A stretch of DNA of 31,147 bases from a bacterium (GTDB lineage: Bacteria; SAR324; NAC60-12), in the NCBI GenBank assembly GCA_965233585.1, contig CBDDTI010000466.1:1-31147 (forward strand), in the 5' to 3' direction. Under the pieces are notes generated by a model. The model worked only from the letters and a program-made list of their open reading frames with translations, did not search any database and was not told the DNA's origin. This document shows, piece by piece, positions 1,033 to 30,159 of this stretch; positions within the stretch are counted from its first letter, which is position 1; each line of letters begins with the position of its first letter. The position numbers and the translations under genes were made by a program.

Positions 1033-3354
1033 GTGTTTTTTGATGTAGAGTGTTATCATTTTAATGATTTTCGATCTCGATGGTTGCTGCCCACTCTTTC
1101 TACTCGATTGGCCAAGCACCGCCTCTTGTATGCCTTCAAGATGGTTCAACATGCCCCGCAAGATCTGATCACCTGCATCACGGCTGAGGATGAGCTGGAC
1201 GGTCACTCACCCTGGTGTCGTGCGCTTCGACATGCCATTGACTGGCTCAGACTTCATGACCCACAAGGCATTGCCCAGTGTTCTGTTGACACGCCTGCTA
1301 CGTTGATTCAGTGGCTGCATGATCACCAACGTGATGGACCATCCCTGGTGCGAAGGCTAGCCCGCAGAGTTGTCAAACAAGATCAACTTGCCTATGACTT
1401 GAAACAGAAGACTCGACAGATCTATGAAGCATGTCGGCTACAAGGTGTTGTTTTTGACCATGTGCCCGAAGAGCCTCTTTCTGCCTCAACCACAGCGTTT
1501 GTTTGCACAACGTGTGGGCAGGGATTTAGCTCAGTTCAAGGTCTTCAAGCTCATCGCTGGCGCAAGCATCAGATCTTTTCAGAGGAACGGCGATACATAT
1601 ATGACACCACGTGTCGAGCCTGCAACCGCTGCTTCTGGACGGTTCAGCGCTTGCAGCAGCATCTCCGTTGGAGTCGTCAGCATTCTGATGGCTGCTACTA
1701 TGTGCTGCAGCGCTATTTCCAACCCCTTGATGTTCCAGTTCAATGCAGCCTGCCGGACTTTGCACGTGGGATTTCACGTCTACCAGCCAGTGTGGTGGAA
1801 GGTCCCTTACCAGATGTGATGCCTACGGTTTGGCAACTTCAACAGAAGGAGAAGCGTGCTCAGCTGATGCAACAGTGGCGTCATTGTGGTTATCCTGATG
1901 ATCTACCACCAGATTTTCAGCAGCATGTTTATGCCCAATGCACTGCCGTCACTTTGACATGGTGCCAAGACACGCTTCTGGATGATCTATGTGATGATCA
2001 CCTGATGCACCGTTGGCTCTCCACATTGGACGACATTGCAGATGCGGACACTGAACAAACTCATTTGGCCACGTGGGCCTTTTTGCTGTGGGGACAATTT
2101 GTGCTTCCTGACCTTGTTGAAGGCACCGAAGACCCTGATTTTCAGATTTGCATGGATCGTGCTTTCTTTGAGGTGGCCAAATTGTTCGAGATGGGCGATC
2201 TTTTGAATGCTTTGGATAAGCTTGATCGTGCTCGTGAACCAGAAGCTGCTTTGAGCGACCCACCCGTTGTGACCACCGACTCCAGACAGAGAGTGACTCT
2301 TGAGCCCTTTTCCCAGGGATACCTTGACCAAGCATTGCTTTTGCGCCCTGTAACACCTCCGGTTTTGACTTGGCCTGAAGCTTCTGCTGTCCCTGTGGTG
2401 ATGGGATATCATGAGAAGCCTACGTTGTTTGTGCTGCACATGTTTTCAGGCAGACGGCGAGCGCTTGACTGTCACCACTGGATTGAAACGTTAGCTCCTG
2501 TTTTGCTGCCTGAGTACAATGTGATCTCTCTTTCTATGGACACAGCCATTCACCCTCAGCTTGGCAATATCCTGGAAGGAACAAGCCTGACTCATGCAAT
2601 TGCTCTGGCCCAAGGGCATGCAATTGCGTTAGGGCTGACAGGGCCGCCTTGCGAGACATGGACGGCGGCGAGACACATTGCATGTGATGAACTCCATGGC
2701 GAAGGCCCTCGGCCACTCCGTTCATGTGAACATGCTTGGGGCCTCATCGGATTGTCCTTCAAAGAGCTTTGCCAGCTTGGAACAGGCTCTGGATTAATGC
2801 TGAACAGCATGCTTCTGGAGGTTTTGATTTCATGGGCAGGGGGCGGCAGCATCATGGAGCATCCAGCGATCCCCGAGAATGAGGAGTACGCTTCCATCTG
2901 GAGGACGCTGATCCACCGCCACCTCATCATGCGCGCGCCGATGGCTCAGATGGTGCGCATTGAGCAGTGGCGCTATGGAGCACCATCGGTCAAACCGACG
3001 ATTCTGAGAGGCTTAGGACTGCCCAAATTGGCGAAGCATTTGCATGCGTGCAAACAGCCCGATTTGAAGAGACCCACGACAGTCTTGGCCGGATTTGACC
3101 GCACCAAAGGGTGCTTTAGAACTTCTGCGGCAAAGGAGTACCCCGCCGGCCTGTGCGAGGCTCTTGTTCGCTCTGCATTTCAGAGCCTCAAGCTCCGCCT
3201 TTTGCGCTCAGGCACCAAACCTGTACAGTGGCAAGACTTTGACCCCAGTGCCCGTTCGTGGGCTGGAGGTTCAAAGCACCATCGCTTTTGCTCCATCCTA
3301 CCTGCCGGACTACCAACCTTTGTAAAGTGTACACAATTGGTGGTCCCAGGATGA
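1033..3354 (+). CDS. C-terminal part of LINE ORF: 2x C2H2 zinc finger + C5-cytosine DNA methyltransferase domain (no true start codon; probable frameshift near the end, alternative stop at 3325)
   Basis: Zinc fingers: CTTCGQGFSSVQGLQAHRWRKH (~1504-1569) and CRACNRCFWTVQRLQQHL (~1612-1666). DNMT motifs in the expected order: I LHMFSG (~2434-2451), IV GPPCETW with catalytic Cys (2641-2661), VI MEHP (2854-2865), VIII-like QWRYGAPSVKPT (2965-3000), X-like AAKEYPAGLC (3127-3156). Confidence 0.8.
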   Translation: MFFDVECYHFNDFRSRWLLPTLSTRLAKHRLLYAFKMVQHAPQDLITCITAEDELDGHSPWCRALRHAIDWLRLHDPQGIAQCSVDTPATLIQWLHDHQRDGPSLVRRLARRVVKQDQLAYDLKQKTRQIYEACRLQGVVFDHVPEEPLSASTTAFVCTTCGQGFSSVQGLQAHRWRKHQIFSEERRYIYDTTCRACNRCFWTVQRLQQHLRWSRQHSDGCYYVLQRYFQPLDVPVQCSLPDFARGISRLPASVVEGPLPDVMPTVWQLQQKEKRAQLMQQWRHCGYPDDLPPDFQQHVYAQCTAVTLTWCQDTLLDDLCDDHLMHRWLSTLDDIADADTEQTHLATWAFLLWGQFVLPDLVEGTEDPDFQICMDRAFFEVAKLFEMGDLLNALDKLDRAREPEAALSDPPVVTTDSRQRVTLEPFSQGYLDQALLLRPVTPPVLTWPEASAVPVVMGYHEKPTLFVLHMFSGRRRALDCHHWIETLAPVLLPEYNVISLSMDTAIHPQLGNILEGTSLTHAIALAQGHAIALGLTGPPCETWTAARHIACDELHGEGPRPLRSCEHAWGLIGLSFKELCQLGTGSGLMLNSMLLEVLISWAGGGSIMEHPAIPENEEYASIWRTLIHRHLIMRAPMAQMVRIEQWRYGAPSVKPTILRGLGLPKLAKHLHACKQPDLKRPTTVLAGFDRTKGCFRTSAAKEYPAGLCEALVRSAFQSLKLRLLRSGTKPVQWQDFDPSARSWAGGSKHHRFCSILPAGLPTFVKCTQLVVPG

Positions 3355-4121: not shown

Positions 4122-4261
4122 AACCTCTGTTCTTTGATTGGGATAGTTTGGTTTTTGAAATGATAGTTTCATTTTGGGTGAAACAATGCAGTTGTTTTTT
4201 GCTTTTCAATTTGGGGATGGTTTTCCAACATGTTTCTTTTCATTTTCTAGGGTTAAGTTTT

Positions 4262-4500
4262 CATGCTAAAATTGAAACCTGGAGAGGTGGGGGCAGGTCA
4301 GAACAAAAAAACATGCTGTAATTCAAACAACAAGTATCATGATTACTGAACCAAACGCACACACACATACACACAGTTGTCATGCTTAAATTGAAACCTG
4401 AAGGGGTGGGGGCAGGTCAGAACAAAAAAACATGCTGTAATTCAAACAACAAGTATCATGATTATGAACCAAACACACGCACATACACATACACAGACAC
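4262..4500 (+). repeat. ~119-bp subterminal tandem repeat, 2 copies (left arm)
   Basis: Unit CATGCTWAAATTGAAACCTG...GGGGGCAGGTCAGAACAAAAAAACATGCTGTAATTCAAACAACAAGTATCATG... starts at 4262 and 4381. Confidence 0.85.
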
Positions 4501-4860
4501 ACTGCCAATGACCATCAAGTATCATGAACATATAAATATATACATAAATGTCTTTATATATATATACTTAATCAATGGTCATGCACATATGATACCAATA
4601 TAGTGTCACCAAGAGGCATGCACGTATGTCACCATCACAAATCATAATATACCATCCAGTGTCCCACAGTTGTCATCCACTTGTGATACCACCATGCACA
4701 TGTCATGAACATAAATATGATACCATTAATTTGTACCTGCAGGTTTCCTGGACAGGTGATGCCGTTGCAGCAGCCTTCAGCTGGGGATGGTGGGGATAAC
4801 GTCCCTGAACAAGGGACTAGCCCTGAACAAGGGCATCATAACCCCTAAAATAATGGGCTT

Positions 4861-5063
4861 CAATTCCAAGACTTGGCATTCCAGGCCTTGGCAATTGAAT
4901 TAAGACATCAAATTCAATTCCAAGACTTGGCGTTCCAGGCCTTGGCAATTGAATTAAGACATCAAATTCAATTCCAAGACTTGGCGTTCCAGGCCTTGGC
5001 AATTGAATTAAGACACCAAATTCAATTCCAAGACTTGGCATTCCAGGCCTTGGCAATTGAATT
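4861..5063 (+). repeat. 54-bp minisatellite, ~4 copies (left arm)
   Basis: Unit CAATTCCAAGACTTGGCRTTCCAGGCCTTGGCAATTGAATTAAGACATCAAATT starts at 4861, 4915, 4969 and 5023. It produces the 18-aa repeat ORFs in the track. Confidence 0.9.
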
Positions 5064-7149
5064 CGTATCCGTTCCAAGAAAAGGGTTAAACAAAAATCTG
5101 TCCCGTAGCTGGCAAATACATACATACACCTCCCTGTCATTTTCAAAGTTGTGAGAATTCATCAGGAATAATTCCAGTCTAGATTTTTTTTCATATTCTT
5201 ATTTTCACAAATGAGTTGGATGACTATATGCATAGTTCTTTTTTTTGTCTGGTGCGTGGCATTTTTGGGGCTTGGTGTGATCTACAGGTGTTCAATGCAT
5301 ATACATGACTATACTCATACACTTCTAGTGGATTGCATGCTCCAACCATCAGGTTCCCAAATGTGGTTGTAGGAATGGAGCTGCATAGGAACCTAAATAC
5401 CGACTGGTTTGACATTAGGATTTCAAATGGCAGACCTTCAACCAAATTAAACAAAAACACACTGTTTTTGAAGACATGATTAGATATGAATAGTTGTGAC
5501 TAGTGTAACGATGGAACAGTTTGAATTTGCTTACTATGGTCTTTGCACCAAAAGGTGTCGAACTTTAGCTGCTCTTGACAGAAAACACATTGTACCAACA
5601 GGGCACTGTTACTCTTCTAGATAAACCATACTCTTAGAGGGACATTCCATCATGCCTCCCTCGGGGATTTCCATTCAAGGTTCCAAATGTCCAAGAGGAA
5701 CAGAATTGCTTGTTTGCTTCTCTTGGGTTCAATTTCTATATGATGTTGTTATTGATGATGATTATTAAATGTGGAAGCTGAACATGAAATTCAGACTTGG
5801 TCATTTTCCAAGTCTGCAAAATCTCTATGGTTCGGTCTCCCAGACAATGTTTTGGCACAATAGTGAATCTTCAATGCACTTCAAGACTTGGCCTCTCAAG
5901 TCTTGCACTGACAAACGTGATCACTGAGACTTTAAGGTTTTTCTCGATGTGATGCAAATGAGTTCTTCAAAAGTTCAAGGCTTGAATCCAAGTCCAACCA
6001 CTCATGTTTGTCTCAATTGGCTACACTTCCCAGGTCTTTCACATATGGTTGATTCATGGTAGTTACCACTAACATGGTTCAGAACTTGGCTGTATCAGTA
6101 TTACTTTTTTGTCCTTTCATGACCTGGTCTTTCAAGACATGAACACATTTTTTTCAAGACTTGGCATCCCAAGTTTTGAAACAAAAAGGTAAGAGTTCAC
6201 CCTTAAATTGTCCAAATGCATTGCACCAAGTTCTGGATTTGATTGGACTTGGCATTCCAAGTCTGGAACTCAACTTGACCCATCTTGGTAACTATTTGAC
6301 CTTCCAAGTCTTCAAGCTCAAGACTTGGGTTTTTGTTGCAAGGTTTTCTGCCTTGGCTCACCAATGAAGTTAGTCTTTGCGACTTTTTAAAAATAATAGG
6401 TTTCAACACTTGCTACCGCCCTGAGCCTGAAAACTTGCAAACAAGCTGTTCTGTAGTTTGATACTTGTTATGTTTCCTGTTGGGTGTCCAGAGTGGTAAA
6501 GATTGGTCTTGTGCTCACAACTTGGAACTCCAAGTCCGGAGCCCAAGAATGATATATTGCAATACTTGGCCTTCAAGTGTTGGAAATGATTTTATTTCAC
6601 TTCCAAATTTTAACCACTCCTAACATTTTACAACCATGTACTAAAATGTGTAACAAGCGGAAACTTTATACATGTGTTTTTTCCTGCCATATGTGGGGCT
6701 GTGCCCGCATGATTCTTTACACATGATGCAATCTTAAAACTTGGCTTCTCAAAATTTGAAACCATTTGGTGTTGTATGCTTGCACATGCCTTTTACAAAA
6801 GACACAATGTGGAATTTCATGGCATCATGCCATCTTCAAGACTTGGCTTCCCCAGTCTTGAAACTGTTTGCAGCTAGTTTTTGCTAACAATAGACTGTGG
6901 ACATCCAAGGTATGAACACGATGGGTTGTTTTTCAAGACTTGGCATCCCAAGTTCTGAAACGTGACAATTTTTCAACTCATGCCCCTAACTTGACAACGG
7001 TACCAAGTGTAACACCCATCCAGGTTTGGCAGTCCAAAGCGGTAGGGATGGGCATTGTGCAGCTTAAGAATGGTGCATTGCAAAATTTGGCCTCAAAGTG
7101 TGAAAATGAGGTTCCTGAGAAAATGGTTTAGAAACTCGCCACACTTGCC

Positions 7150-9328
7150 TTCCCAAGTCTTGAATCCTTTTGGGGCAAAGAATTTCAACATTAGACCCTT
7201 GCCAAGAATTATGTCTTTCATGATTTGGCCTTCCAAGACATGAACACAAGTGAACATGATTGTCAAGACTTGGCAGCCACAGGTCTGAAATCTTACACCT
7301 TTTTTTTGAAGACTTGGCATGCCAAGTTTTGAAATGTTACATTTTTGCAACTCCATGTCCCCAAGTCTTGACAATGACTGCACTATTCAAGACGTGGCTT
7401 TCCAAGTCTTCAAACTTGTCGGGGTAACGAATTTCAACATTAGACCCTTGCCGAGAATTATGTCTTTCATGACTTGGCCTTCCAAGACATGAACACAATT
7501 GGAAAAAGTTTTTCAAGACTTGGCAGCCACATTTCTGAAATCTAACACCTTGTGTTCAAGACTTGGCATGCCAAGTTTTGTAATGGTGTTACATTTTTTT
7601 GCAACTCCATGTCCCCAAGCATTGACAATGATTGCCCTATTCAAGACTTGGCTTTCCAAGTCTTGATTTTTTTGGCGGTATAGAATTTCTTCAGTATAAG
7701 TAAGATTTACTGTATGTCTTTCATGACTTGGTCTTCCAAGACATGAACACAAGTGAAAATGATTGTCAAGACTTGGCAGCCACAGGTCTGAAATCTTACA
7801 TTTTTCTCTCAAGACTTGGTATTCCAAGTTTTGAACTGCTACATTTTTGCAACTCCATGTCCTCAAGTCTTGGCAATGATTGCACTATTTGAGACTTGGC
7901 TTTCCAAGTCTTGAAACTATTTGCTGTATAGACTTTCAACAGTATAACAAAGACTTATGTCTTTCATGACTTGGTCTTCCAAGACATGAACACAAGTGAA
8001 AATGATTGTCAAGACTTGGCAGCCACAGGTCTGAAATCTTACATAGTTCTTTTAAGACTTGGCATGCCAAGTTTTGAAATGTTACATTTTTGCAACTCAG
8101 TGTCCCCAGGTCTTGACAAATAACTGCACTATTCAAGACTTGGCTTTCCAAGTCTTCAAACTTTTCGTGGTAAAGAATTTGAACGTTAGACTCAAATAAG
8201 AACTTTCATGACTTGGTTTTCCAAGACGTGACCACAAGTGAACATGATTGTCAAGACTTGGCAGCAACAGGTCTGAAATCTTACATTTTTCTTTCAAGAC
8301 CTGGTCTGCCAAGTCTTGAAACGTTACGTTCTTTGGCAACTCCATGTCCCCAAGTCTTGACAATGATTGCCCTACTCAAGACTTGGCTTTCCAAGTCTTG
8401 ATTTTTTTGCGATATAGAGTTTCAACAGTATAAGTAAGATTCATGTCTTTCATGACTTTGTCTTCCAAGACATGAACACAAGTGAAAATGATTGTCAAGA
8501 CTTGGCAGCCACAGGTCTGAAACCAAGTCTTGAACTGCGGCATCTTTTTGCAACTCCATGTCCCGAAGTCTTGACAATGATTGCACTATTCAAGACTTGG
8601 CTTTCCAAGTCTTGAATCCTTTTGGGGCAAAGAATTTCAACATTAGACCCTTGCCAAGAATTATGCCTTTCATGACTTGGCCTTCCAAGACGTGAACACA
8701 AGTGAACATGATTGTCAAGACTTGGCAGCAACCACAGTTCTGAAATCTTACATTTTTCTTGAGACTTGGCAATATCCCATGTCTTGAAATGTTACATTTT
8801 TTGGCAACTCCATGCCCCCAAGTCTTGACAATGATTGCACTAGATAAGTCTTGAAACTTTTTGGGGCAAAGAATTTCAACATTTGACCCTTGCCAAGAAT
8901 TATGTCTTTCATGACTTGGTCTTCCAAGACGTGACCACAAGTGAACATGATTGTCAAGACTTGGCAGCCACAGGTCTGAAATCTTACATTTTTCTTTGCT
9001 ACAATTTTGCAACTCCATGTCCTCAAGTTTTGACAAAGATTGCACTATTCAAGACTTGGCTTTCCAAGTCTTGAAACTTTTTGCTGTATAGACTTTCAGC
9101 AGTATAACCAAGATTTATGTCTTTCATGACTTGGTCTTCCAAGACATGAACACAAGTGAAAATGATTGTCAAGACTTGGCAGCCACAGGTCTGAAATCTT
9201 ACATAGTTCTTTTAAGACTTGGCATGCCAAGTTTTGACATGTTACATGTTTGCAACTCAGTGTCCCCAGGTCTTGACAAATAACTGCACTATTCAAGACT
9301 TGGCTTTCCAAGTCTTGAAACTTTTTGC
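7150..9328 (+). repeat. ~245-bp satellite, ~9 diverged units (inner part of left arm)
   Basis: Anchor TTTCATGA(C/T)TT recurs at about 7216, 7465, 7719, 7962, 8204, 8448, 8668, 8907 and 9122. Each unit holds several CAAGACTTGG/CCAAGTCTTG motifs. Confidence 0.9.
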
Positions 9329-10980
9329 AGGAAACAGTTTGATAATGTTTGGCTTGCGCTTGTTGGTGCTTGTAGCCGCTGCTGCTGCTGCCCCTGATGA
9401 TTCACCCTCAGCTCGGTATGCATTGCCCTCCCTGTTGAGAGCAGCATTGTGCTGCTGAACCACCTTCATCCATTCATCCCGCACTTCTGGAATGGTGAGC
9501 TTCTCCTCCATCGCATCCAGGAAGGCGGCTCTGAGAGGAAGTTCATTCGATGCACTTGGAAATGTGCATGTGAAATCAGCAGAATTCAAACTGGGCATGA
9601 TAAGATTTTCTGCGTAAGTCGACAATGGCTCCCAATTTGGAACGACTGTGATGCCTTCTGTGGCTAGCCTGAAGCCGCCTCTTCAGGGCGACACAAAGCC
9701 AATTCGCAACTTTCGCCGCATCGACCTTCCTGTTGGCACCATTTGGATCACGAGTATTGGCCTCGGCCCAACAAGGCCGACACAAAGCATTGATGGCAAC
9801 TTTGTGTTGGAGGACAGCCGCATGATGGCTTCAGCCATGCTGTGGTCATAGGCAAAGGTGTCAATGATGCAGCAGCCCACTGAGCCATCAAGGCCAAGAC
9901 CAAGCAAAAGGCCCTGTAGCCATGCAGATGGCAAAGAAAAGCCTGACAGCCATTGCTTTCGCCTGCTGGCTCTGGACAAATCCATGACTCCTGCAGAAGT
10001 CTTGAAGTCACGCCGAGGGTCGACGTAATTCCTCACTGAATTCATCTGCACCGTGATGTCCTTGGAGGATGGAGTCACCTGTCGTTTCCAAGCTGCAGAC
10101 TTGGCAAACACACTGACATAATCACCTTCTTCCTGCAAGTCACTAATGATTGCACATGAAAAACTTGTGTACACCAGGTCGGTATGACTGTGGTGGATAA
10201 CTTGAATGGTCAAACATCACAGTGACTTCACGCAGCACGAGTCGGTGCTCTGGCATCTTCAAAAGTTCCATCATCTTGGCAGCTGTATTCGCAATTTCAT
10301 CCTCATCACATGCGTTGCCATATCCACCAACAGTCGGGCATGCAAGGACCAAGCATGTGTTTGCTGGTGATGCTGCGATCAAACCAGCATACTCCTTCAC
10401 AGCTGTCACTGTGTTCTTCCAGCCATCATACCCCAAGGTTGAAAAATTGAGCCAGTAGATCTTGAGAAACTTGTTCTCAGCCAGACCCTTCTCAGCTGCA
10501 AAGCGATGGATTGATGCCTCATAGAATGTCGTTCCATGGCCACATTCTGAAAGATCTCGGACTGGGAAGTTGCACTCTTGCATGGCATTGATTGCAGCAC
10601 GTTGAGCCTCACGCTGTTTCTCAAGCATTTCTGCACGTAGACCCAGACCGACCTTCTGAAAGTTTTCAACGCCAAGCTGGTACTCCTTGAACTTGGTCTC
10701 TTCTTTTTTGGAGCTTTGCAACGGCCTTGACCATCTCAGCTTTCTGTAGATCCAAGTTGGCTTTCTGCAGGTCCAAGTTGGGCCCCAGCATCCCCTCTGC
10801 AACACCATAGTCAGCCAAGAATCGGAAGTCGCCAACTTGCAGGGGACTGGATCCGGATCTCCTCCATCATCTCAGTGGCCAGGTAACTGCGGACAAACGT
10901 CAACTCACAAGCTTCCAGCTGTGCATCTGTGAGCACCTTCTCGAATGCCGGGCGAAAGTGTGCAAACAAGCAGCACATTT
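9329..10980 (-). pseudogene. 3' portion of cargo gene 1 (unknown protein; degenerate amino-MTase-like segment); frameshifted and 3'-truncated against the satellite
   Basis: Protein-like frames chain through ORFs 10143..10835, 9683..10213, 9576..9785 and 9293..9625 via small frameshifts. The frame is continuous with 15882-16116 once the 10981-15879 insertion and one TT are removed (...DDAHSWQ|MCCLFAHFRPAFEKVL...). Confidence 0.7.
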
Positions 10981-13900
10981 CCCTGAGTCTCCGGAATTAG
11001 TAAATTTAGGTCGAGCTAAATTTACGTAAATGGGAGCAGTTTAGGTAAAACATTTACTAATTTATTTTTCCACCTAAATAAAAAATCAAATTTAGGTTAC
11101 GACCTAAATTAATTTACTGATCGACCTGAATTAATTTACTAATCGACCTAAATTTTTGGATGTTGTATTTTTACTTAAAACTATTTAGTTTTGTTAGCAT
11201 TTTGCATGTGGGGTTTTTACAGAATCATCAAATTTTGCTGTGATTTTGCATGCGTTGCCCTAAGTCTGCAAACCTAGTAACTTTACTAATTTAGTAAACT
11301 TACTAATCGGGAGGAGACTGCGATTCTTTTTTGGCCAAGTCACCCAATATTAGTAGATTGTGTGAACAATGAAAAATGCACCAAAGGTGCATCAAACATG
11401 CCTGTTGTTGTTGTTGTCGTCGTCGTTGTTCTATCTATATAGTTGCCATGCATCTGATACATGGGGAAGAATCTGCTAACAAAATTTTGCAAATTTAGTA
11501 TATGCTGTTTGTTGAGAATGTTCACAAGTAAGCCTCTGTAAAAAACACATGATTTTTGCTAAACTGTATTACGTGTAAGCTAGATTGATGCGAAAAAGAA
11601 GGCCAGAATCTTAGCAAGTGACCACTCAAGTAAAAAAAACAACTATTTAGGGGAACCTACATTGGGATTTACATGAGGTATCTGTATTATATCAAGTGTG
11701 ATTTTTCTAGTGAAATTTACAAAAGATAATTACATTGGAATTTACACGAGTGACTGCGGAGCATTCCAGTTTGGGATGAAAAACATGTTAGGTAGATTGC
11801 AATCACATTAAAACAAATCATATATCAAAGCAGGAAGAACTAAACCATAGCTATGAAAGCTATGCTCTTTGATAAAGAACAAATATAGAGGGGTATTGTT
11901 CGTTTTGTTTTTCAGCCTGGTTTCTTGGTTTGTGTGGTTTTTCTGATTTGGTCTCTTGGCTTTAGTGGCTTTTGGTTTTTATGACTCATAAAGTGTGCTG
12001 CAATTGCTTTTGCGGTTTTTGTGTTTTTTTCGGATTTTGTAGTTTTTGTAGCTGTTGTGGTTTTTATGGTGTGTGGCTCTTGTGGCTCTTGGTTTCTTCG
12101 CCCTTTGGGGTTGTTTTGGTTCGTTGGCTTTTGCGGTTTCTTGGTTTTTGTGCTTTTCCCTCTCTGAGTTTATATGCATGTGTTTGCGAAAGGGATTAAC
12201 ACATGGTTTCAACAAGTGTCCTAACTTGCCCTTTTCCATGTTCTGAAAACAGTATTTCAGGACACTTGTTGAAATTTATTGTCCAAAAAAATTCTACTTG
12301 ATTTGTGTTTCACAACAAATAATCAGTGGGGAAAAAGGGGTGCTCAGTTCTTCATTTGAACTTACATGGAACCAATAGGAAAACCAAAACAAATGAACGG
12401 TACTTCAGAAGAGATTCAATTTCACATTGCCTTCATTTGGGTTTACTTGAGCTAGCATTCAGTTTACATGGCATGAGTGTTTGCACAGTGGACTCTATTT
12501 ATTTGAGACTGCTTTTAGGGACCCTGCATTCACTTAACTTTACTTCAGACTGCGCTGGTGGCTGCACTTGGACTTTATACTTGAGAACAATTCCAATGAG
12601 TTTGCTTTTGAAAACAACTCCAATGAACTTTACCCGAGAGGGAATCCAGTGAACTTTACTTGGGAACAACTCCAATGAACTTTACATATCTGAAAAAAAA
12701 ACTTTACCTGAGAACCCTTTTTTAAGGCTGCTCAAGACGATATTGGGGTCACGTCCAGTTAACTTGGTTTGAAACCATTTCCCTTGAACTTTTGGTGAAT
12801 CCTATCTTACAGAAACAATTTTCTTTTAGATTCAACACGCCACCTGAATCTTCATGAGATGCCTCATCTCATCATCAAATGCATTCAGCTTGTCATCTTG
12901 TCTACATGTTTATTTTGGAATTCAACTATACTATACAAGGTTGCTTGCGACTTTCATTCTTAAGACTCATGTATTCCACCGCAGTTCAAATTGCAAAAAC
13001 ATATGAAAACTATTTGGAGTTATCTTGAATACAGGTTTTGCTGTATTTTTATATTTACGTTATGGTTTCACGTATAGACTCTTGTTTTTTTTGGGGGGGT
13101 CACAACACATGGTTCTTGTACACAAGGCCTTCAGGAAATCCCTTTTGAATTTCTTATGAACTTCTTGTGACATTTCATGATCTTCTTTTGCATTTTCAAG
13201 AAATCGTTATGCATTTTTTATGCTTTTCTTATGCAGTTCTTATGCATTTCTTATGCATATCTTATGCAATTCTTTTGCATTTCTTATGCAATTATTTTGC
13301 ATTTCTTATGCAATTCTTTTGCAATTCTTATGCATTTCTTATGCACTTCTTATGCAGTTCTTTTGCAGTTTTAAAAACTTCATACACTTTTGCCAAAACT
13401 GCATACACTTTTGCCAAAACTGCATACACTTTTGCCCAAAACGTATGAAGTTGTAAAAACTGCATAAGAATTGCATAAGAAATGCATAAGAATTGCATAA
13501 GAAATGCGTAAGAAATTCATAAGAAATGCATAAGACATGCATAAGAAATTCATAAGAAATTCCTTTACAAAAAATCAGAAATGCATAAAAACTGCAAACA
13601 AAAATGCAAAAGAAGTAAAAGGAATTCAGGAGAATTTCAATAGACATGCAAAAGGAATGCATCAGAATTTCAGAAGAAATTCACAAGAAAATATTGCCAT
13701 TGTGTCCAAAAAATGATGAAAAAATGGAATGCCTCAGGAATTTCTTTTGAAATTATGTTGCTGTTCCTTTGCACTCTTCATGCACTTTCTACTGCATAGA
13801 AATTTTCTCCAAAATTAATTCAAACCTCATCAAACACCGAAAAACGTTCATCACATGTTTATCAATTTTCGTTTGCACAACACTGACTTCAACTGAATCT

Positions 13901-15879
13901 GAATTTGCCAAAACAGATTCCAGGATATTTTGACCCAGCTGCTCAAGTAAAACCAAGCCCAACCCATGTAAACCCTTCAAGGTCTTATATAAGTATGCAA
14001 CAAATAAATGCGATTATACTTACAATATGTTATTATGTTACTATAGCTTTAGGCCTCCCCACCTTCAACCCTAATGCTCAAACAACATCAAGAAAAACCC
14101 AAGCAAAACGAACAGGTTTGAACTACCTTTTATGATCACAAATAGATCTTAAATACGTTCATGTAAACCTTCAGGTGGGGATGTCTCAACATGAGGTGTC
14201 CTTTTTTCTTTAAAGTGACATTTTATCCCATAAAAAGGACACCTTATTTGTTTGATGATTTTTTTTAGAGTTAAAGTGTTTAGCTTTCAATTTTACCAGA
14301 AACGTGGTCACTTGCTAGGATCCTGGTTGTACTTTAACATGTACATTAAGGGTCCAGATTACAGAAAAAATGGCCTGCGGTCTACAAAACGGAAGGGGAC
14401 AGCCTGAGAGTGTTTTTTTTGTGTTTTCTACACCTGCAATGGATTAATTTGTTCTTCGCAGTCTCGCCTTTGCATGGTCTTTCCTTTTTGCAGAATACAA
14501 CACCCCAAAAAGAACAAACACAAACAAACAAGAAACCCAAAAATTCCACCAAAAAAGAGCACCAACCCAAGAAACCAAAATACAAAGAAACAAAACAAAT
14601 TGCACACCCAAAACGGGGGAAGATGCAGAGAATTGGGTCCCGTCATGTTTTCTGTTTTGTTTGTTTTTTTGGTTTGTCTTTTTGGTTCCTTGTTTCTTTT
14701 GAAGGGCTGGCAGGACAAAAAAAGTGGCAGGACCTAACCTTCTGCTACTTCTCCCAGCTTAGGGTTTGCAAATTTGATTTTTGTTATTGTTTGCTGTGGG
14801 TCTGTGGTTTCATGACAAAACTACGACAAAACCACAGAAAAATGTAGGTATCATCGTGGGAACTTTGTGGGTTTGGGACATGGATTGGGCAATTTTATGT
14901 CCGATTCAGTTTTGAAAATATGCCAAAAGATTATGCAAAACATAGGCAGCCAATCAATTTGTAGGATTGACTTTGCTATTGGCATTTTTCAGTCAAAACC
15001 TTAGGTCAACAACACCTGAAATTAGTCCATTAAATATGAACAAAAAACTAATCACAGTTTTTGACCTACCCATGGAACACTTTAAAAAATGTTCAACATC
15101 CAATACATACAACACATTTCCAAAACATCTACATATCAAAGCAGATGCATACAAAACACGTATACAAAATCACAATTTCTCATCAGAAATTACATTGATT
15201 TTTAGATATTCCAACATAGAAACGTTAGTAGGTGTTTTTCTAACATAAGTGAATTGTGGTACATACGTAGATTTTACTAACACAAGGAAAACTCTTGAAT
15301 TTACGGTAGTAAGTCCCACAGTTTAAATAATTTTGTGCGCACCTAAATTCACTAGCTTTGCGGACTTATGGTGGTTGCTGGTGCATCTATGTTTGGCCTA
15401 ATGGTTTTCACTTGTGTGGGAAGATTTAGGAGAAAGGATGAGAGCTATGACTCCTGCAGTTGAAACACAGCTTACCTCAAACTAGCCTTGTTTCTTGATG
15501 TTACTTATGCCATTGTTTTTGACTTTGATTGACTTTGCAGCTTGTCACTTTGCTTGATTTACTTGTGATGGCTTCTGTTACTTCACATCAAACCACTTGT
15601 TCTTTTGAACAGCCAACCGCACACACACACGTGATATTTTTGAAAACAGCACAATATTTATAGAGAAACTCGTCAGATCAAGACACATAGCTGACTTGAG
15701 AACATCATGTGAATATACCGAAAACAACAGAAATTTAAGCAAAAAAAAGTCACTATGAAATTTAGGTTACGACCTAAATTAATTTGGGTCGTAAAAAATA
15801 GGTCAATTTTTGCACCTAATTTTTTTGGATTATCTAAATCAAGGCCCTAAGTAAAATTACTAATTCCGGAGACTCAGGG
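10981..15879. mobile_element. Non-autonomous ~4.9-kb CACTA/EnSpm-like DNA transposon, copy 1 (TSD TT)
   Basis: 28-bp TIR CCCTGAGTCTCCGGAATTAGTAAATTTA (one mismatch at the right end). TT lies on both flanks (10979-10980 and 15880-15881). Subterminal repeats TTTAGGTCG/CGACCTAAA occur at both ends. No long ORF. Superfamily inferred from the CCC...GGG termini, 2-bp TSD and subterminal repeats. Confidence 0.85.
13205..13562. repeat. Central inverted microsatellite of nested element copy 1
   Basis: ~11-bp TGCAWTTCTTA units on the left and complementary TAAGAAWTGCA units on the right, around a loop of 21-bp CATACACTTTTGCCAAAACTG x3 closed by CTTCATAC...GTATGAAG. Confidence 0.85.
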
Positions 15880-15881
15880 TT

Positions 15882-17205
15882 GCCATGAGTGTGCATCATC
15901 TCGAACATCACGAAAACTCTGGGCATTGCTGTGCAGATTGATCTTTTTCCGGAGACGCTTTGCTTCTGCCAGCCTGTGGACAAAGTAGCGCACCTTCCTG
16001 CTGATCCACATGTGTCGCTTGTCATTGTTTGGAGCCAGGATTTCCTTCCACAGGTCAGAGTCCACTTTGGGTTTTGCACCATTCCCTTGGTCAGTGTCAG
16101 TGAAAAAACTGTTCAAAATTCATACACAGCAAAGTTTCTGGACCTGAAAAGAAAATATACCATCAAGAATTGCCAAGGGACGCAGAACCTCAGAGCCAAT
16201 GATCTTCAAGGTGAGGGCTGAAGTCTTGGACTCGAAGTTCGACCAGTGATATGCCACTAAGTCCTGTGTTGCTTGGTGCAACGTGGGGTACATCTTAATC
16301 ACAGAGGCCTCCAAGGCTGAAACCTTCTTGTGTTCCCTGCCACTGCCACCATTGAACTCCTGGATAAGCTCACCAATCCCCTCATTCCAAGTTTTACCCG
16401 TCTCATCTGGCGAAACATGAACGCACACTGAATTGGGTCTGGTCTTGGCCTTGATGATTCACTGAACTTCTCTGCAAGGCAATTGAACTGGTCAGCCTTA
16501 GCATCACCTGAAGTCTTATGAACACACCTGAACCCGTAGCATGCTGCAAGGAAAGGGTAAAGAGATTTCAGCTCAGCGTCTGTCAGAGACACATCGATGG
16601 CAGCAACCAGGATGAGCTTCATGGCGATGATTTTGGTGTACCCATTTGTGATGGTCACTGAGAACGGGTCGATGTTGGACCCAGGGTTCAGATTCTTGAA
16701 GCTGACACCAATGGGATTTTTGACTGAGTGGTATGGGACTTCAAGGAACTCTTGCACGAGCCTGAGCACATACACACTCTTCGAGGTTCCTTTGAAGCTG
16801 AAATCTGGTCCAAAGCCCAGCATCCAAGGTTGTAAGACAATCTCCTCTGTACTCCCTTCTGCTGGTGGCACCGGCACAGCCAGAGCTGCTGCACGTCGCT
16901 CAAACTGAAAAGAAGGCTGCACCCTCTCAATGCAAATCATCGGGTCATGAAGGTCACTGCGAAAAGCTCCATGGTTCTGCCCGAACTGGTTCACCAGGTA
17001 GGTACCTTCAGTGAATCGACTGACACTGTCACTCAGGTGAAAATGCAATTTGACCACTCGAACAACATATTTCTATACTGGGGCCTAAGCTGCAGTCCAC
17101 TGCATCATCCATTTCTGGGCTGCCAGATCCACTGAACATCTCAGTGGACCAGTTGATGAGCTTCTGGGCTGCGGCTTTTGCCTCAGGGCTTGCCCTCCAC
17201 GCCAT
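15882..17205 (-). pseudogene. 5' portion of cargo gene 1 (MAWRASPEAK...), intron-containing, with a tentative ParB/Srx-like segment
   Basis: GCCATGG start at 17205. A GC-AG intron (17084-17006) joins ORF 17029..17388 in frame to ORF 16299..17057 (...VDCSL-G-TYLVNQFG...). There is a frameshift near 16410 into ORF 16120..16428, then a probable second intron at ~16187-16086 (phase unresolved), then ORF 15874..16116. Confidence 0.7.
17006..17084 (-). other. 79-bp GC-AG intron in cargo gene 1
   Basis: Donor TTAG|GCCCCA and acceptor CTGAAG|GTACC on the minus strand. Removal restores a continuous frame. Confidence 0.6.
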
Positions 17206-17594: not shown

Positions 17595-18603
17595 CAGAAA
17601 TGGCACTGGCCAGGGTGGCTAGTGCCATTTCTCCAGATGCCAATAGTGTAGTGACTTTGGAAATCGGGGCCTGGTACCTTACAGGCCACTGGAAAGAAAC
17701 TTTAAGACCAAATAGGCAATGTCATTAAGATAATGATGTCCTGAGAAATGGCACTGGCCAGGGTGGCTAGTGCCATTTCTCCAGATGTCATTATTGTAGT
17801 GACTTTGGAAATCGGGAGCTGAAAAATGACAAAGAAACTTCAAAGACCAAAAAGGCAATGTCATTAAGATAATGATGTCCTGAGAAATGGCACTGGCCAG
17901 GGTGGCTAGTGCCATTTCTCCAGATGTCATTATTGTAGTGACTTTGGAAATCGGGAGCTGAAAAATGACAAAGAAACTTCAAAGACCAAAAAGGCAATGT
18001 CATTAAGATAATGATGTCCTGAGAAATGGCACTGGCCAGGGTGGCTAGTGCCATTTCTCCAGATGTCATTATTGTAGTGACCTTGGAAATCGGGAGCTGA
18101 AAAATGACAAAGAAACTTCAAAGACCAAAAAGGCAATGTCATTAAGATAATGATGTCCTGAGAAATGGCACTGGCCAGGGTGGCTAGTGCCATTTCTCCA
18201 GATGTCATTATTGTAGTGACTTTGGAAATCGGGAGCTGAAAAATGACAAAGAAACTTCAAAGACCAAAAAGGCAATGTCATTAAGATAATGATGTCCTGA
18301 GACATGGCACTGGCCAGGGTGGCTAGTGCCATTTCTCCAGATGCCATTATTGTAGTGACCTTGGAAATCGGGAGCTGAAAAATGACAAAGAAACTTCAAA
18401 GACCAAAAAGGCAATGTCATTAAGATAATGATGTCCTGAGAAATGGCACTGGCCAGGGTGGCTAGTGCCATTTCTCCAGATGTCATTATTGTAGTGACTT
18501 TGGAAATCGGGAGCTGATACTTTACAGACCACTGGAAAGAAACTTTAAGACCAAATAGGTAATGTAATTAAGATAATGGTGTCCTGAGAAATGGCACTAG
18601 CCA
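17595..18603. repeat. 139/148-bp tandem array, each unit containing a 39-bp palindrome
   Basis: GAGAAATGGCACT-GGCCAGGGTGGCT-AGTGCCATTTCTC at 17595, 17743, 17882, 18021, 18160, 18299 and 18438, with an interrupted copy at 18586. Inner spacing is 139 bp; the outer two intervals are 148 bp. Confidence 0.95.
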
Positions 18604-21600
18604 CCCTGAGTCTCCGGAATTAGTAAATTTAGGTCGAGCTAAATTTACGTAAATGGGAGCAGTTTAGGTAAAACATTTACTAATTTATTTTTCCACCTAA
18701 ATAAAAAATCAAATTTAGGTTACGACCTAAATTAATTTACTGATCGACCTGAATTAATTTACTAATCGACCTAAATTTTTGGATGTTGCATTTTTACTTA
18801 AAACTATTTAGTTGCGTTAGCATTTTGCATGTGGGGTTTGTACAGAATCATCAAAATTTGCTGTGATTTTGCACTGCAAACCTAGTAACTTTACTAATTT
18901 AGTAAACTTACTAATCGGGAGGAGACTGCGATTCTTTTTTGGCCAAGTCATCCAATATTAGTAGATTGTGTGAACAATGAAAAGTGCACCAAAGGTGCAT
19001 CAAACATGCCTGTTGTTGTTGTTCTATCTATATAGTTGCCATGCATCTGATACATGGGGAAGAATCTGCTAACAAAATTTTGCAAATTTAGTATATGCTG
19101 TTTGTTGAGAATGTTCACAAGTAAGCCTCTGTCAAAAACACATGATTTTTGCTAAACTGTATTACGTGTAAGCTAGATTGATGCGAAAAAGAAGGCCAGA
19201 ATCTTAGCAAGTGACCACTCAAGTAAAAAAAACAACTACTTAGGGGAACCTACATTGGGATTTACATGAGGTATCTGTATTATATCAAGTGTGATTTTTC
19301 TAGTGAAATTTACAAAAGATAATTACATTGGAATTTACACGAGTGACTGCGGAGCATTCCAGTTTGGGATGAAAAACATGTTAGGCAGATTGCAATCACA
19401 TTAAAACAAATCATATATCAAAGCAGGAAGAACTAAACCATAGCTATGAAAGCTATGCTCTTTGATAAAGAACAAATATAGAGGGGTATTGTTCGTTTTG
19501 TTTTTCAGCCTGGTTTCTTGGTTTGTGTGGTTTTTCTGATTTGGTCTCTTGGCTTTAGTGGCTTTTGGTCTTTATGACTCATAAAGTGTGCTGCAATTGC
19601 TTTTGCGGTTTTTGTGTTTTTTTCGGATTTTGTAGTTTTTGTAGCTGTTGTGGTTTTTATGGTGTGTGGCTCTTGTGGCTCTTGGTTTCTTCGCCCTTTG
19701 GGGTTGTTTTGGTTCGTTGGCTTTTGCGGTTTCTTGGTTTTTGTGTTTTTCCCTCTGAGTTTATATGCATGTGTTTGCGAAAGGGATTAACACATGTTTT
19801 CAACAAGTGTCCTAACTTGCCCTTTTCCAAGTTCTGAAAACAGTATTTCAGGACACTTGTTGAAAATTATTGTCCAACTATTTCTACTTGAATGTGTTTC
19901 ACAACAAATAATCTGTGGGGAAAAAGGGGTGCTCAGTTCTTCATTTGAACTTACATGGGACCAATAGGAAAACCAAAACAAATGAACGGTATTTCAGAAG
20001 AGATTCAATTTCACATTGCCTTCATTTGGGTTTACTTGAGTTATTAGCATTCAGTTTACATGGCATGAGTGTTTGCACAGTGGACTCTATTTATTTGAGA
20101 CTGCTTTTAGGGACCCTGCATTCACTTAACTTTACTTCAGACTGCGCTGGTGGCTGCACTTGGACTTTATACTTGAGAACAATTCCAATGAATTTGCTTT
20201 TGAAAACAACTCCAATGAACTTTACCCGAGAGGGAATCCAGTGAACTTTACTTGGGAACAACTCCAATGAACTTTACATATCTGAAAAAAAGAACTTTAC
20301 CTGAGAACCCTTTTTTAAGGCTGCCCAAGATGATATTGGGGTCACGTCCAGTTAACTTGGTTTGAAACCATTTCCCTTGAACTTTTGGTCAATCCTATCT
20401 TACAGAAACAGTTTTTTTTAGATTCAACACGCCACCTGAATCTTCATGAGATGCCTCATCTCATCATCAAATGCATTCAGCTTGTCATCTTGTCTACATG
20501 TTTATTTTGGAATTCAACTATACTATACAAGGTTGCTTGCGACTTTCATTCTTAAGACTCATGTATTCCACCGCAGTTCAAATTGCAAAAACATATGAAA
20601 ACTATTTGGAGTTATCTTGAATACAGGTGTTGATGTATTTTTATATTTACGTTATGGTTTCACGTATAGACTCTTGTTTTTTTTTGGGGGGGGTCACAAC
20701 ACATGGTTCTTGTACACCAGGCCTTCAGGAAATCCCTTTTGAATTTCTTATGAACTTCTTGTGACATTTCATGATTTTCTTTTGTATTTTTAAGAAATCT
20801 TTATGCAGTTCTTATGCATTTCTTATGCATATCTTATGCAATTCTTTTGCATTTCTTATGCAATTCTTTTGCATTTCTTATGCAATTCTTTTGCAATTCT
20901 TATGCATTTCTTATGCATTTCTTATGCACTTCTTATGCAGTTCTTATGCAGTTTTAAAAACTTCATACACTTTTGCCAAAACTGCATACACTTTTGCCCA
21001 AAACGTATGAAGTTGTAAAAACTGCATAAGAATTGCATAAGAAATGCATAAGAATTGCATAAGAAATGCGTAAGAAATTCATAAGAAATGCATAAGACAT
21101 GCATAAGAAATTCATAAGAAATTCCTTTAAAAAATCAGAAATGCATAAAAACTGCAAACAAAAATGCAAAAGAAGTAAAAGGAATTCAGGAGAATTTCAA
21201 TAGATATGCAAAAGGAATGCATCAGAATTTCAGAAGAAATTCACAAGAAAATATTGCCATTGTGTCCAAAAAAATGATGAAAAAATGGAATGCCTCAGGA
21301 ATTTCTCTTAAAATTATGTTGCTGTTCCTTTGCACTCTTCATGCACTTTCTACTGCATAGAAATTTTCTCCAAAATTAATTCAAACCTCATCAAACATCG
21401 AAAACGCGCATCACATGTTTATCATTTTTTCTCCAACCAGCTCCCTTCTTTTGCACAACACTGACTTCAACTGAATCTGAATTTGCCAAAACAGATTCCA
21501 GGATATTTTGACCCAGCTGCTCAAGTAAAACCAAACCCAACCCATGTAAACCCTTCAAGGTCTTATATAAGTATGCAACAAATAAATGCGATTATACTTA

Positions 21601-23464
21601 TAATATGTTACTATGTTACTATAGCTTTAGGCCTCCCCACCTTCAACCCTAATGTTCAAACAACATCAAGAAAAAACCAAACAAAATGAACAGGTTTGAA
21701 CTACCTTTTTTATGATCACAAATAGGTCTTAAATAAGTTCATGTAAACCTTCAGGTGGGGATGTCTCAACATGAGGTGTCCTTTTTTCTTTTAAAGTGAC
21801 ATTTTATCCCATAAAAAGGACACCTTATTTTTTGATGATTTTTTTAGAGTTAAAGTGTTTAGCTTTCAATTTTACCAGAAACGTGGTCACTTGCTAGGAT
21901 CCTGGTTGTACTTTAACATGTACATTAAGGGTCCAGATTACAGAAAAAATGGCCTGCGGTCTACAAAACGGAAGGGGACAGCCTGAGAGTGTTTTTTTGT
22001 GTTTTCTACACCTGCAATGGATTAATTTGTTCTTCGCAGTCTCGCCTTTGCATGGTCTTTCCTTTTTGCAGAATACAATGATACAACACCCAAAAAAGAA
22101 CAAAAACAAACAAACAAGAAACCCAGAAATTCCACCAAAAAAGAGCACCAACCCAAGAAACCAAAATACAAAGAAACAAAACAAATTGCACACCCAAAAC
22201 GGGGGAAGATGCAGAGAATTGGGTCCCGTCATGTTTTCTGTTTTGTTTGTTTTTTTGGTTTGTCTTTTTGGTTCCTTGTTTCTTTTGAAGGGCTGGCAGG
22301 ACAAAAAAGTGGCAGGACCTAACCTTCTGCTACTTCTCCCAGCTTAGGGTTTGCAAAATTGTTTTTTTTTATTGATTGCTGTGGGTCTGTGGTTTCATGA
22401 CAAAACTACGACAAAACCACAGAAAGATGTAGGTATCATCGTGGGAACTTCGTGGGTTTGGGACATGGATTGGGCAATTTTATGTCCGATTCAGTTTTGA
22501 AAATATGCCAAAAGATTATGCAAAACATAGGCAGCCAATCAATTTGTAGGATTGACTTTGCTATTGGCATTTTTCAGTCAAAACCTTAGGTCAACAACAC
22601 CTGAAATTAGTCCATTAAATATGAAAAAAAAACTAATCACAGTTTTTGACCTACCCATGGAACACTTTAAAAATGTTCAACATCCAATACATACAACGCA
22701 TTTCCAAAACATCTACATATCAAAGCAGATGCATACAAAACACGTATACAAAATCACAATTTCTCATCAGAAATTACATTGATTTTTAGATATTCCAACA
22801 TAGAAACGTTAGTAGGTGTTTTTCTAACATAAGTGAATTGTGGTACATACGTAGATTTTACTAACACAAGGAAAACTCTTGAATTTACGGTAGTAAGTCC
22901 CACAGTTTCAATAATTTTGTGCGCACCTAAATTCACTAGCTTTGCGGACTTATGGTGGTTGCTGGTGCGTCTATGTTTGGCCTAATGGTTTTCACTTGTG
23001 TGGGAAGATTTAGGAGAAAGGATGAGAGCTATGACTCCTGCAGTTGAAACACAGCTTACCTCAAACTAGCCTTGTTTCTTGATGTTACTTATGCCATTGT
23101 TTTTGACTTTGGTTGACTTTGCAGCTTGTCACTTTGCTTGATTTACTTGTGATGGCTTCTGTTACTTCACATCAAACCACTTGTTCTTTTGAACAGCCAA
23201 CCGCACACACACAAGTGATATTTTTGAAAACAGCACAATATTTATAGAGAAACTCGTCAGATCAAGACACATAGCTGACTTGAGAACATCATGTGAATAT
23301 ACTGAAAACAACAGAATTTTAAGCAAAAAAAGTCACTATGAAATTTAGGTTACGACCTAAATTAAATTAGGACGTTAAAAAAATAGGTCAATTTTTGCAC
23401 CTAATTTTTTTGGATTACCTAAATCAAGGCCCTAAGTAAATTTACTAATTCCGGAGACTCAGGG
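18604..23464. mobile_element. Non-autonomous ~4.9-kb CACTA/EnSpm-like DNA transposon, copy 2 (TSD CA)
   Basis: Perfect 28-bp TIR CCCTGAGTCTCCGGAATTAGTAAATTTA. CA lies on both flanks (18602-18603 and 23465-23466). Same orientation as copy 1 and near-identical to it along its whole length. Confidence 0.85.
20800..21124. repeat. Central inverted microsatellite of nested element copy 2
   Basis: Same structure as 13205-13562 but with fewer left-hand units and two rather than three 21-bp loop units. Confidence 0.85.
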
Positions 23465-29822: not shown

Positions 29823-30159
29823 GCCCATTATTTTAGGGTTTATGATGCCCTTGTTCAGGGCTAGTCCCTTGTTCAGGGACGTTATCCCCACCATCCCCAG
29901 CTGAAGGCTGCTGCAACGGCATCACCTGTCCAGGAAACCTGCAGGTACAAATTAATGGTATCACATATATGTTCATGACTTGTGTGCATGGTGGTATCAC
30001 AAGTGGATGACAACCCGGGGACACTGGGTGGTATTTTATGATTTTATGACTCTTGGTGACATTATATTGGTATCATATGTGCATGACCCTTGATTAAATA
30101 TAAATATATATATATATATATATTTATGTTCATGATGCTTGATGGTCATTGGCAGTCTG

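Follow-up and report, generated by a model that had tools for sequence, protein, structure and literature searches.

Fusions of a ParB-like domain with a DNA amino-methyltransferase (Pfam ParBc PF02195 and N6_N4_Mtase PF01555) are typical of phages and plasmids. Foldback-type DNA transposons, another point of comparison, have long terminal inverted repeats (TIRs) composed of tandem subrepeats. In eukaryotes, haptophytes acquired methyltransferases of the phage ParB-Tls locus, fusions of ParB-HTH (helix-turn-helix) with Dam occur in chlorophytes and chytrids, and DIRS1 retrotransposons carry an inactive methyltransferase domain (PMC4738411). The accessible part of that article makes no mention of a dinoflagellate ParB-methyltransferase family. 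We describe here a gene on the minus strand of contig CBDDTI010000466.1 (hereafter the window, i.e. the whole 31,147-nt stretch that was analysed), together with the 26.6-kb inverted-repeat element that surrounds it. The gene is probably a dead copy of an uncharacterised dinoflagellate ParB/methyltransferase-like gene, lying in a large non-autonomous DNA transposon.

Ten stop-to-stop open reading frames (ORFs) follow each other on the minus strand, from 17391 to 9293. The gene pieces were ordered by tblastn of the Effrenium voratum protein P0001 against the window and every junction was inspected. All pieces stand in the same order as in P0001, and from 17205 to 9296 the ten ORFs merge into a single reading of 942 codons, with six breaks (X at each) and zero in-frame stops. 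This reading begins with MAWRASPEAK (17205-17176) and is colinear with residues 2-915 of P0001 (45.1% identity) and with P0064 (60.0% identity). That a single hidden gene is interrupted here by a 4.9-kb insertion, by introns and by small frameshifts had been proposed in the initial annotation, and the gene model bears this out. The DNA at 9-11 kb and 16-18 kb has a coding-like GC content of 0.46-0.50 (0.475-0.496 for the flanking coding DNA vs 0.32-0.38 inside the insert at 11-16 kb, which thus also stands out by its composition). The gene and its interruptions are as follows:

9296-17205, minus strand: likely pseudogene of the ParB-like/methyltransferase-like family, ATG at 17205-17203, seven in-frame blocks
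17006-17084, minus strand: intron 1, GC-AG, 79 nt, phase 1, keeps GSGSPEMDDAVDCSLG
~16405, minus strand: frameshift 1, accompanied by a deletion of ~2 codons
16086-16181, minus strand: intron 2, GT-AG, 96 nt, with a stop codon inside; the splice product matches P0001
10981-15879, plus strand: nested non-autonomous TIR transposon copy 1, 4,899 bp, 23-bp perfect terminal repeats, TT duplication
~10842, minus strand: frameshift 2, in a C4 run
~10704, minus strand: frameshift 3, in an A6 run
~10154, minus strand: frameshift 4, context ATG-T-GCA
~9775, minus strand: frameshift 5, no homopolymer
~9667, minus strand: frameshift 6, no homopolymer

Both introns had been proposed before, the second as probable only. 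For intron 1 two in-phase GC donors are possible. We placed it at 17084-17006, rather than at the donor 17123 of the initial annotation, because the 79-nt form retains GSGSPEMDDAVDCSLG, which corresponds to the segment GSGDxExxDAV in most of the homologues of alignment A2 that bear the N-terminus. The longer form (118 nt) removes this segment and was rejected. The gene model of P0001 does not contain it. The second intron is found as a GT-AG intron at 16181-16086, and its splicing gives EVLR-N-GAKPKVDSDLW where P0001 reads EQVR-C-GSKPRIDCELW. At its other end the gene frame enters the first subrepeat of the left arm of the element and meets a stop at 9296-9298. The C-terminal domain of ~240 residues present in full-length relatives has no counterpart anywhere in the window, chance matches only being obtained (E at least 0.69).

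The largest interruption lies between HSWQ (15891-15880) and MCCLFAHF (10978-10955). The inserted DNA is bounded by perfect 23-bp terminal inverted repeats (CCCTGAGTCTCCGGAATTAGTAA) and flanked by the duplicated TT at 10979-10980 and 15880-15881. Four occurrences of the 23-mer were counted in the window and none in 100 shuffles, and a second copy of the insert, in the same orientation, lies upstream of the gene:

18604-23464, plus strand: second copy of the nested transposon, 4,861 bp, 96.1% identical to copy 1, CA/CA duplication

The insert is thus a non-autonomous TIR transposon, present twice in the window, that duplicates 2 bp of its target; those of its ORFs that were scanned contain no Pfam domain. 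The initial annotation had also stated that removing 10981-15879 with one TT rejoins the frame as HSWQ|MCCLFAHF. This excision indeed produces a 135-aa open frame, ...DDAHSWQMCCLFAHF... (junction also given as ...RDDAHSWQMCCLFAHFRPAFEK...), and the homologues run uninterrupted across the insertion point, as DDETCWAITCLFVHY in P0001 and YSDTWQMCAVYVHF in the closer P0009.

Some further observations concern this transposon. Both copies begin with CCC and finish with GGG, and their 2-bp duplications are not TA. Copy 2 has gone into the centre of a palindrome that belongs to the final unit of a 139-bp tandem array. A candidate GC donor stands 4 nt upstream of the insert that splits the gene (minus strand; 15880-15885 / 10976-10987) and an AG two bases inside its far end, so placed that 4,901 nt could be excised in frame to give HSW-E-MCC; copy 2 is likewise preceded by a GT just ahead of its minus-strand start (caagGTGccctgag). 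This arrangement looks introner-like. According to the available part of PMC12166617, Symbiodinium and Polarella commonly harbour introner transposons as well as integrated viruses, and an intron-like fate of the nested insert is therefore conceivable.

The gene belongs to a family of long proteins. A 257-aa ORF matches P0001 (E 1.3e-50), and a 242-aa ORF, searched against a representative set of 1.84 billion proteins, matches 59 of them, 26 at E<=1e-10 and 8 at E<=1e-30. Full-length members (1125-1239 aa) come from Effrenium, from Symbiodinium sp. CCMP2592, which has three close paralogues, from Durusdinium trenchii and from records on 3.7-8.5-kb contigs; P0010, P0062 and P0063 are near-identical paralogues inside one genome. 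Judged from these sequences, the family would consist of dinoflagellate proteins of ~1,150 residues (Symbiodiniaceae and relatives), and appears dinoflagellate-specific among the named matches. Its intact members diverge to ~25% identity, which points to selection on the protein. With P0001 as query, 185,579 prokaryotic species genomes gave 21 pattern matches of which 0 were confirmed, in a search that reaches close relatives only. There is no Pfam model for the family, and full-text literature searches yielded no paper on such a family or element; the family appears undescribed.

The resemblance to ParB and to methyltransferases comes from the predicted fold. P0001 was modelled with AlphaFold2 from a 34-sequence alignment, with a mean predicted local distance difference test (pLDDT) score of 85.2 and a predicted template modelling (pTM) score of 0.55. 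The model starts with a ParB/sulfiredoxin (Srx)-like N-terminal domain and a helical region, continues with a single helix of ~65 residues (440-506) and a circularly permuted amino-methyltransferase-like Rossmann domain, and ends with a basic linker and a beta-rich C-terminal domain. After the long helix a strand is followed by the catalytic loop, a helix and further strands; next comes a loop-rich insert, and last a helix, a strand and the S-adenosylmethionine (SAM) loop. We take this to be the order of beta-class enzymes. The predicted fold is that of a permuted Rossmann methyltransferase, going by the structural matches given below. In the window the two domains correspond to:

16407-17003, minus strand: ParB/Srx-like domain of the window copy, 199 aa modelled with AlphaFold2 (pLDDT 85.5, pTM 0.81), core at 16769-16608
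9416-10574, minus strand: permuted beta-class-like methyltransferase-like region, with three frameshifts, mapped from P0001 505-894 by tblastn

The 39 matches of the P0001 model listed by Foldseek against the PDB are 33 methyltransferases and 6 ParB-family proteins, with no others. M1.HpyAVI accounts for nine of the top ten listed rows (best E 5.5e-4, prob 1.00, TM score normalised on the target 0.52-0.57). Rotifer N4CMT, CcrM, TTHA0409, M.BceJIV, type III Mod subunits, METTL3-METTL14 and MTA1-MTA9 follow. Nearly all the methyltransferases listed are permuted, of the beta-class, MT-A70 or type III Mod groups. The ParB-type matches include pNOB8 ParB-N (E 0.031), KorB (prob 0.96), Noc and Caulobacter ParB. 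The 50 matches listed from a library of viral models comprise 14 proteins named as ParB, Spo0J, partition or sulfiredoxin-type (best E 3.1e-4, prob 1.00), 4 N4/N6 methylases, one of them from Pandoravirus, 2 ParB-superfamily relatives (DndB-like and GmrSD N-terminal domain), 25 unnamed or uncharacterised proteins and 5 others. For the 199-aa domain of the window itself the top six PDB rows are all of the ParB family (PadC, pNOB8 ParB-N, B. subtilis ParB-CDP, Caulobacter ParB).

A ParB-like N-terminal part and a methyltransferase-like C-terminal part had been proposed in the initial annotation from peptide patterns, together with a check by profile and structure searches. The peptides it quoted were all found in place: VLRLVQEF..GVSF at 16769-16698, FSVTITNGYTKIIAMKLIL at 16664-16608, KQWLSG at 9958-9941, CCIIDTFAYDHSMAEAIMRL at 9874-9815, MLCVGL at 9790-9773 and IYWLNFS at 10460-10440. 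The AlphaFold and Foldseek results agree with the methyltransferase assignment and, less firmly, with the ParB assignment; the profile searches described below returned nothing in their favour. The ParB and methyltransferase reading is thus supported by the modelled fold and not by sequence similarity.

We then considered the positions at which catalytic and nucleotide-binding residues would be expected. In amino-methyltransferases motif IV reads [DNS]PP[YFW] after strand 4 and the SAM motif I reads FxGxG, while ParB proteins carry a GxxRxxA box for binding of cytidine triphosphate (CTP). These slots were scored across the 34 family members. None of the 34 has [DNS]PP[YFW] in the motif IV slot, where 33/34 read [ND]-x-x-x-x-G; the window copy has IYWLNFSTLGYDG, in which IYWLNFS continues as IYWLNFSTLG. 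FxGxG is present in 0 of the members that cover the motif I slot, the sequence there being D-h-h-[AGP]-[YF]-[DSCE]-x-[SHK]. The motif X / motif I region of the window copy (9958-9815) is RRKQWLSG...IIDTFAYDHSMAEAIMRL, with IIDTFAYDHS in the slot; RRKQWLxG ahead of this slot is strongly conserved in the family, and YDxS is conserved too. The members that cover the ParB box read G-[FYM]-[TA]-[KR]-x-x-[AST], and the window copy NGYTKIIAMKLIL, with NGYTKIIAM. The glycine and a single basic residue are kept and the arginine pair is lost, so that GxxRxxA itself is not found.

The degenerate catalytic motifs noticed in the initial annotation therefore extend to all 34 members examined. If the model is correct, the family retains the folds and loses the residues that define their chemistry, in a conserved manner. 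Since the motif IV and motif I slots hold other residues conserved in the family, we infer that the intact members would have a non-catalytic, DNA-associated role and would not methylate DNA. A repurposed DNA-binding role had been suggested for the window copy; it does not hold for that copy, which is likely a truncated pseudogene.

How far this resembles the described systems can now be specified. As in the ParB and N6/N4 methyltransferase fusions of phages, plasmids and prophages, a ParB-like part comes first and a permuted methyltransferase-like part second, each with a fold resemblance to its counterpart. A link to mobile DNA is also common to both, as is the presence in eukaryotic microbes reported for haptophytes, chlorophytes and chytrids (in the part of PMC4738411 available). 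In contrast to these fusions the family has no detectable sequence similarity to them, its motif IV and I slots are replaced in 34/34 members, and its ~1,150 aa include an added long helix and a C-terminal beta domain. The best structural matches, M1.HpyAVI (5hfj), CcrM (6pbd) and rotifer N4CMT (8s9m) (E 5.5e-4 to 2e-2), have the same permuted order, the strand-4 catalytic loop preceding the SAM loop, whereas the family is without the catalytic tetrapeptide and without the glycine-rich SAM loop.

In METTL14, MTA9 and the DIRS1 domain, as here, a methyltransferase fold is kept and active-site motifs are lost, and the DIRS1 domain is also carried by a mobile element (same part of PMC4738411). 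These proteins nevertheless belong to a different clade, while the family is fused to a ParB-like domain and has no known active partner. With the CTP-dependent DNA clamps ParB, KorB, Noc and PadC the family shares a G-x-x-[KR]-x-x-A in the GxxRxxA slot and, in the model, a similar N-terminal fold, but only one K/R is left of the arginine patch and the match of the isolated window domain is not significant. We would class the family as a new eukaryotic variant of the ParB-methyltransferase fusions, one that lacks their motifs. Its most economical origin would be a phage- or plasmid-type fusion of ParB with a DNA methyltransferase, taken up by a eukaryote. The catalytic motifs would have been lost in the family, leaving the intact members in a non-catalytic, DNA-associated role, and the window copy is broken by the 4.9-kb transposon, by the frameshifts and by its end at the arm subrepeats, without the C-terminal domain.

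Relative to the intact homologues the window copy has accumulated several lesions: the 4.9-kb insertion, six frameshifts, the loss of the C-terminal domain and changes at 8 of the 73 positions that are invariant across eight full-length relatives (65/73 are kept). Four of the eight altered residues fall within one motif, RGYLDxELxEK becoming RSYLATEMMEE. Near-identical ORFs exist in the databases (P0002, P0118, P0123, P0124, P0127, P0006 and P0027; 96-98% identity). Seven of the eleven close database proteins tested begin at MCCLFAHF, directly after the nested insert, and three extend into the arm subrepeats. Several proteins from sister copies (9245-10978 region, minus strand) read TGA as W, partly out of frame. 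Given this start and this reading of TGA, the near-identical ORFs are spurious, i.e. gene-caller artefacts derived from sister copies.

The breaks in these copies are partly common and partly private. P0123, P0124 and P0127 have in common frameshifts 5 and 6, with the out-of-frame stretch between them, and the same gene-to-subrepeat junction. P0027 has frameshift 2 in common with the window copy. P0002, P0118, P0123, P0124 and P0127 cross frameshifts 2 and 3 in one frame, with a private shift near 10305. Such a mosaic fits the descent of the copies from an already broken ancestor. The window copy is thus likely, though not certain, to be a truncated pseudogene.

Very long inverted repeats flank the gene, in agreement with the giant transposon of the initial annotation, and the arms of 5.2 kb are accompanied by a 4-bp duplication:

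4122-30732, no strand: whole inverted-repeat-bounded element, 26,611 bp, from blastn of the left vs the right part and alignment of termini and flanks
4122-9340, plus strand: left arm, ~5.2 kb, outer part 88-94% identical to the right arm, 23 palindrome copies
17693-18603, no strand: 139-bp tandem array, 6.5 copies, 96% matches, between the gene start and nested copy 2
25459-30732, minus strand: right arm, ~5.3 kb, inverted copy of the left arm, 18 palindrome copies

The termini of the element (AACCTCTGTTCTTTGATTG) align from the first base, those of the arms beginning AACCTCTGTTC..., and TTGT stands immediately outside both ends. The arms are 88-94% identical over their outer ~3 kb and ~82% identical in their inner tandem arrays of ~243/244 bp. 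They contain 41 palindromes of 28 bp (12+4+12; TTCAAGACTTGG-N4-CCAAGTCTTGAA, up to 3 mismatches), which extend over 5880-9319 and 25517-28573 at one per ~80 bp. All of them are within the arms; the rest of the window has 0, and so have the shuffles. Diverged subtypes, e.g. TTCATGACTTGG...CCAAGACATGAA, remain nearly palindromic. The preserved dyad symmetry suggests either hairpins or a sequence bound by a dimeric protein.

With both nested copies subtracted, the element would measure ~16.9 kb, and its interior is then composed of the gene, the 139-bp array and ~2 kb with a 223-aa ORF (23589-24257, minus strand). All relatives of this ORF are 78-99% identical to it; one cluster holds 50 sequences, and a 2.7-Mb contig carries one of the relatives. 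The DNA around this ORF thus belongs to a repeat that is dispersed in related genomes. As a candidate transposase the 223-aa ORF was rejected, having only such 78-99% identical copies and no Pfam domain. The unit of the 139-bp array, which lies just upstream of the start codon, bears a palindrome with 16-bp arms (GAAATGGCACTGGCCA-GGG-TGGCTAGTGCCATTTC). Most simply, the element is read as a large non-autonomous TIR DNA transposon bearing a gene fragment. Like the Foldback-type transposons it has kilobase inverted arms in which short units are repeated in tandem, an interior that varies and a target duplication of a few bp; unlike them it has a 28-bp palindrome about every 80 bp in arms of 5.2 kb, and a transposase was not found in it.

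Several results weigh against reading the locus as a dead copy of a ParB/methyltransferase-like gene in a non-autonomous transposon, and we give them here with the alternatives that they favour. All sequence and profile tests for ParB or methyltransferase were negative. Pfam had no such match on any of the 9 gene pieces of the window, on P0001 or on 20 homologues, nor on any of the 34 alignment members even at E<=10, and no relevant PHROGs match was obtained for the same 34 members. Profile searches of the PDB with the whole-family and the methyltransferase-half alignments gave one irrelevant match at E>1. When slices of the family were compared by hhalign with E. coli YhdJ (probability 0.2) and phage P1 ParB (probability 0.1), the scores were like those of 9 unrelated controls, in a comparison underpowered by its single-sequence templates. 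The ESM Atlas had no usable match for the whole protein, and for the methyltransferase-like part a best score of 0.82, to ThsA Macro, which is at noise level. The structural E-values are modest too: just one listed PDB match of the P0001 model is at E<=1e-3 and none for the window's own domain, whose ParB matches (E 0.30-0.50, prob 0.54-0.82, query TM 0.34-0.39) are ranked best without being significant alone. Foldseek output came without residue ranges, and the domains were assigned from how the secondary-structure elements follow one another. All this would be accounted for if the family had an unrelated origin and its predicted model resembled the two alpha/beta folds by chance or convergence. 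We nevertheless regard it as distinctly unlikely, because two structure libraries independently converged on the same two families, with virtually no others in the named matches, and because the methyltransferases matched are overwhelmingly of permuted types (beta-class, MT-A70 or type III Mod), not generic Rossmann enzymes. Moreover ParB precedes the methyltransferase, as it does in the known fusions, and the sequence slots align with the ParB box and with motif I and the stretch ahead of it.

The state of the gene also leaves room for doubt. A reading of 942 codons without one nonsense codon is somewhat clean for a pseudogene. The frameshifts in the C4 and A6 runs, i.e. 2/6, are absent from five near-identical database copies, so that some of the breaks could be assembly errors. 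If all were, and if the 4.9-kb insert were removed as an intron, the gene could be functional: the GC...AG pair (tgGCAAccctgag...ctcAG|GG) would take out 4,901 nt in frame, and the introners known in Symbiodinium (PMC12166617, available part) offer a precedent. But 4/6 shifts are outside homopolymers, one of them with the ~2-codon deletion, some are in common with independent database copies, invariant residues are altered (8/73, four in one conserved motif) and the C-terminal domain is gone from the window. A functional gene seems to us extremely improbable.

Other doubts bear on the element. A match of 4 bp in the flanks can occur by chance, and a transposase domain was not found by Pfam in any ORF scanned in the element. 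Two inverted copies of a repeat array might have come to flank a host gene, through inverted segmental duplication or two separate insertions, and the gene might have been destroyed locally, with no single giant transposon involved. The 3' end of the gene is indeed lost precisely where the left arm has its inner edge, and the inner parts of the arms, just ~82% alike, are tandem arrays prone to rearrangement. Against such a trapped gene stand the matching outer termini with the same TTGT flanks, the right-hand interior segment repeated elsewhere at 78-99% identity, and the recurrence of the same gene-repeat junction in other records. We consider it unlikely. Alternatively, the gene could encode the element's own protein, whose ParB-like/HTH part would recognise the arm palindromes as ParB does parS arrays, for transposition or maintenance, the window holding a decayed copy. 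The confinement of the 41 palindromes to the arms (0 expected), the dyad symmetry retained by their variants, the interior without any other protein-coding candidate, the junction common to P0123, P0124 and P0127 and the several near-identical paralogues of one genome (P0010, P0062, P0063) all go in this direction. The recognition of the palindromes is putative only, however, a nuclease or integrase fold was not seen among the model's listed matches, the gene is cut off by the arm instead of being neatly enclosed, and intact members diverging to 25% identity also fit ordinary host genes. An element-encoded protein is thus, in our estimate, quite unlikely. Very unlikely, in its most elaborate form, is a family acting as the dedicated protein of a new giant dinoflagellate element, ParB-derived and non-methylating, that would use the 28-bp subrepeats as a parS-like array to mobilise, pair or partition the element; if true, a eukaryotic transposon would be run by a phage/plasmid-derived ParB-type system instead of a classical transposase.

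A dead copy of a ParB/methyltransferase-like family gene within a non-autonomous transposon remains the reading that we prefer. If a conserved, motif-less descendant of the fusions has indeed spread through the Symbiodiniaceae, it would be a further case of dinoflagellates adopting bacterial or viral DNA-handling proteins, and a new example of a methyltransferase fold retained for a non-catalytic job. The locus itself is of modest practical import, since it holds a dead copy; the greater interest is in the family and in its possible link to the palindrome-rich element. This 26.6-kb element, packed with palindromes, has an unusual repeat architecture that annotators of coral-symbiont genomes would otherwise mask as noise.

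Minor features complete the description of the window. Tandem arrays are present in the outer arms (4859-5063, 29405-29823 and 30255-30592): a 54-bp unit is repeated 3.8 and 7.8 times, the number differing between the arms, and an array of a 115-bp unit (2.9 copies) occurs in the right arm only. When the outer flanks of the element are joined as an empty site, an ORF lengthens from 130 to 198 aa, from which we draw nothing. Outside the element a 774-aa open frame (1030-3354, plus strand; DNA GC 0.50-0.53) contains one C2H2 zinc finger (Pfam zf-C2H2_4, E 4e-6) and is probably a host gene.

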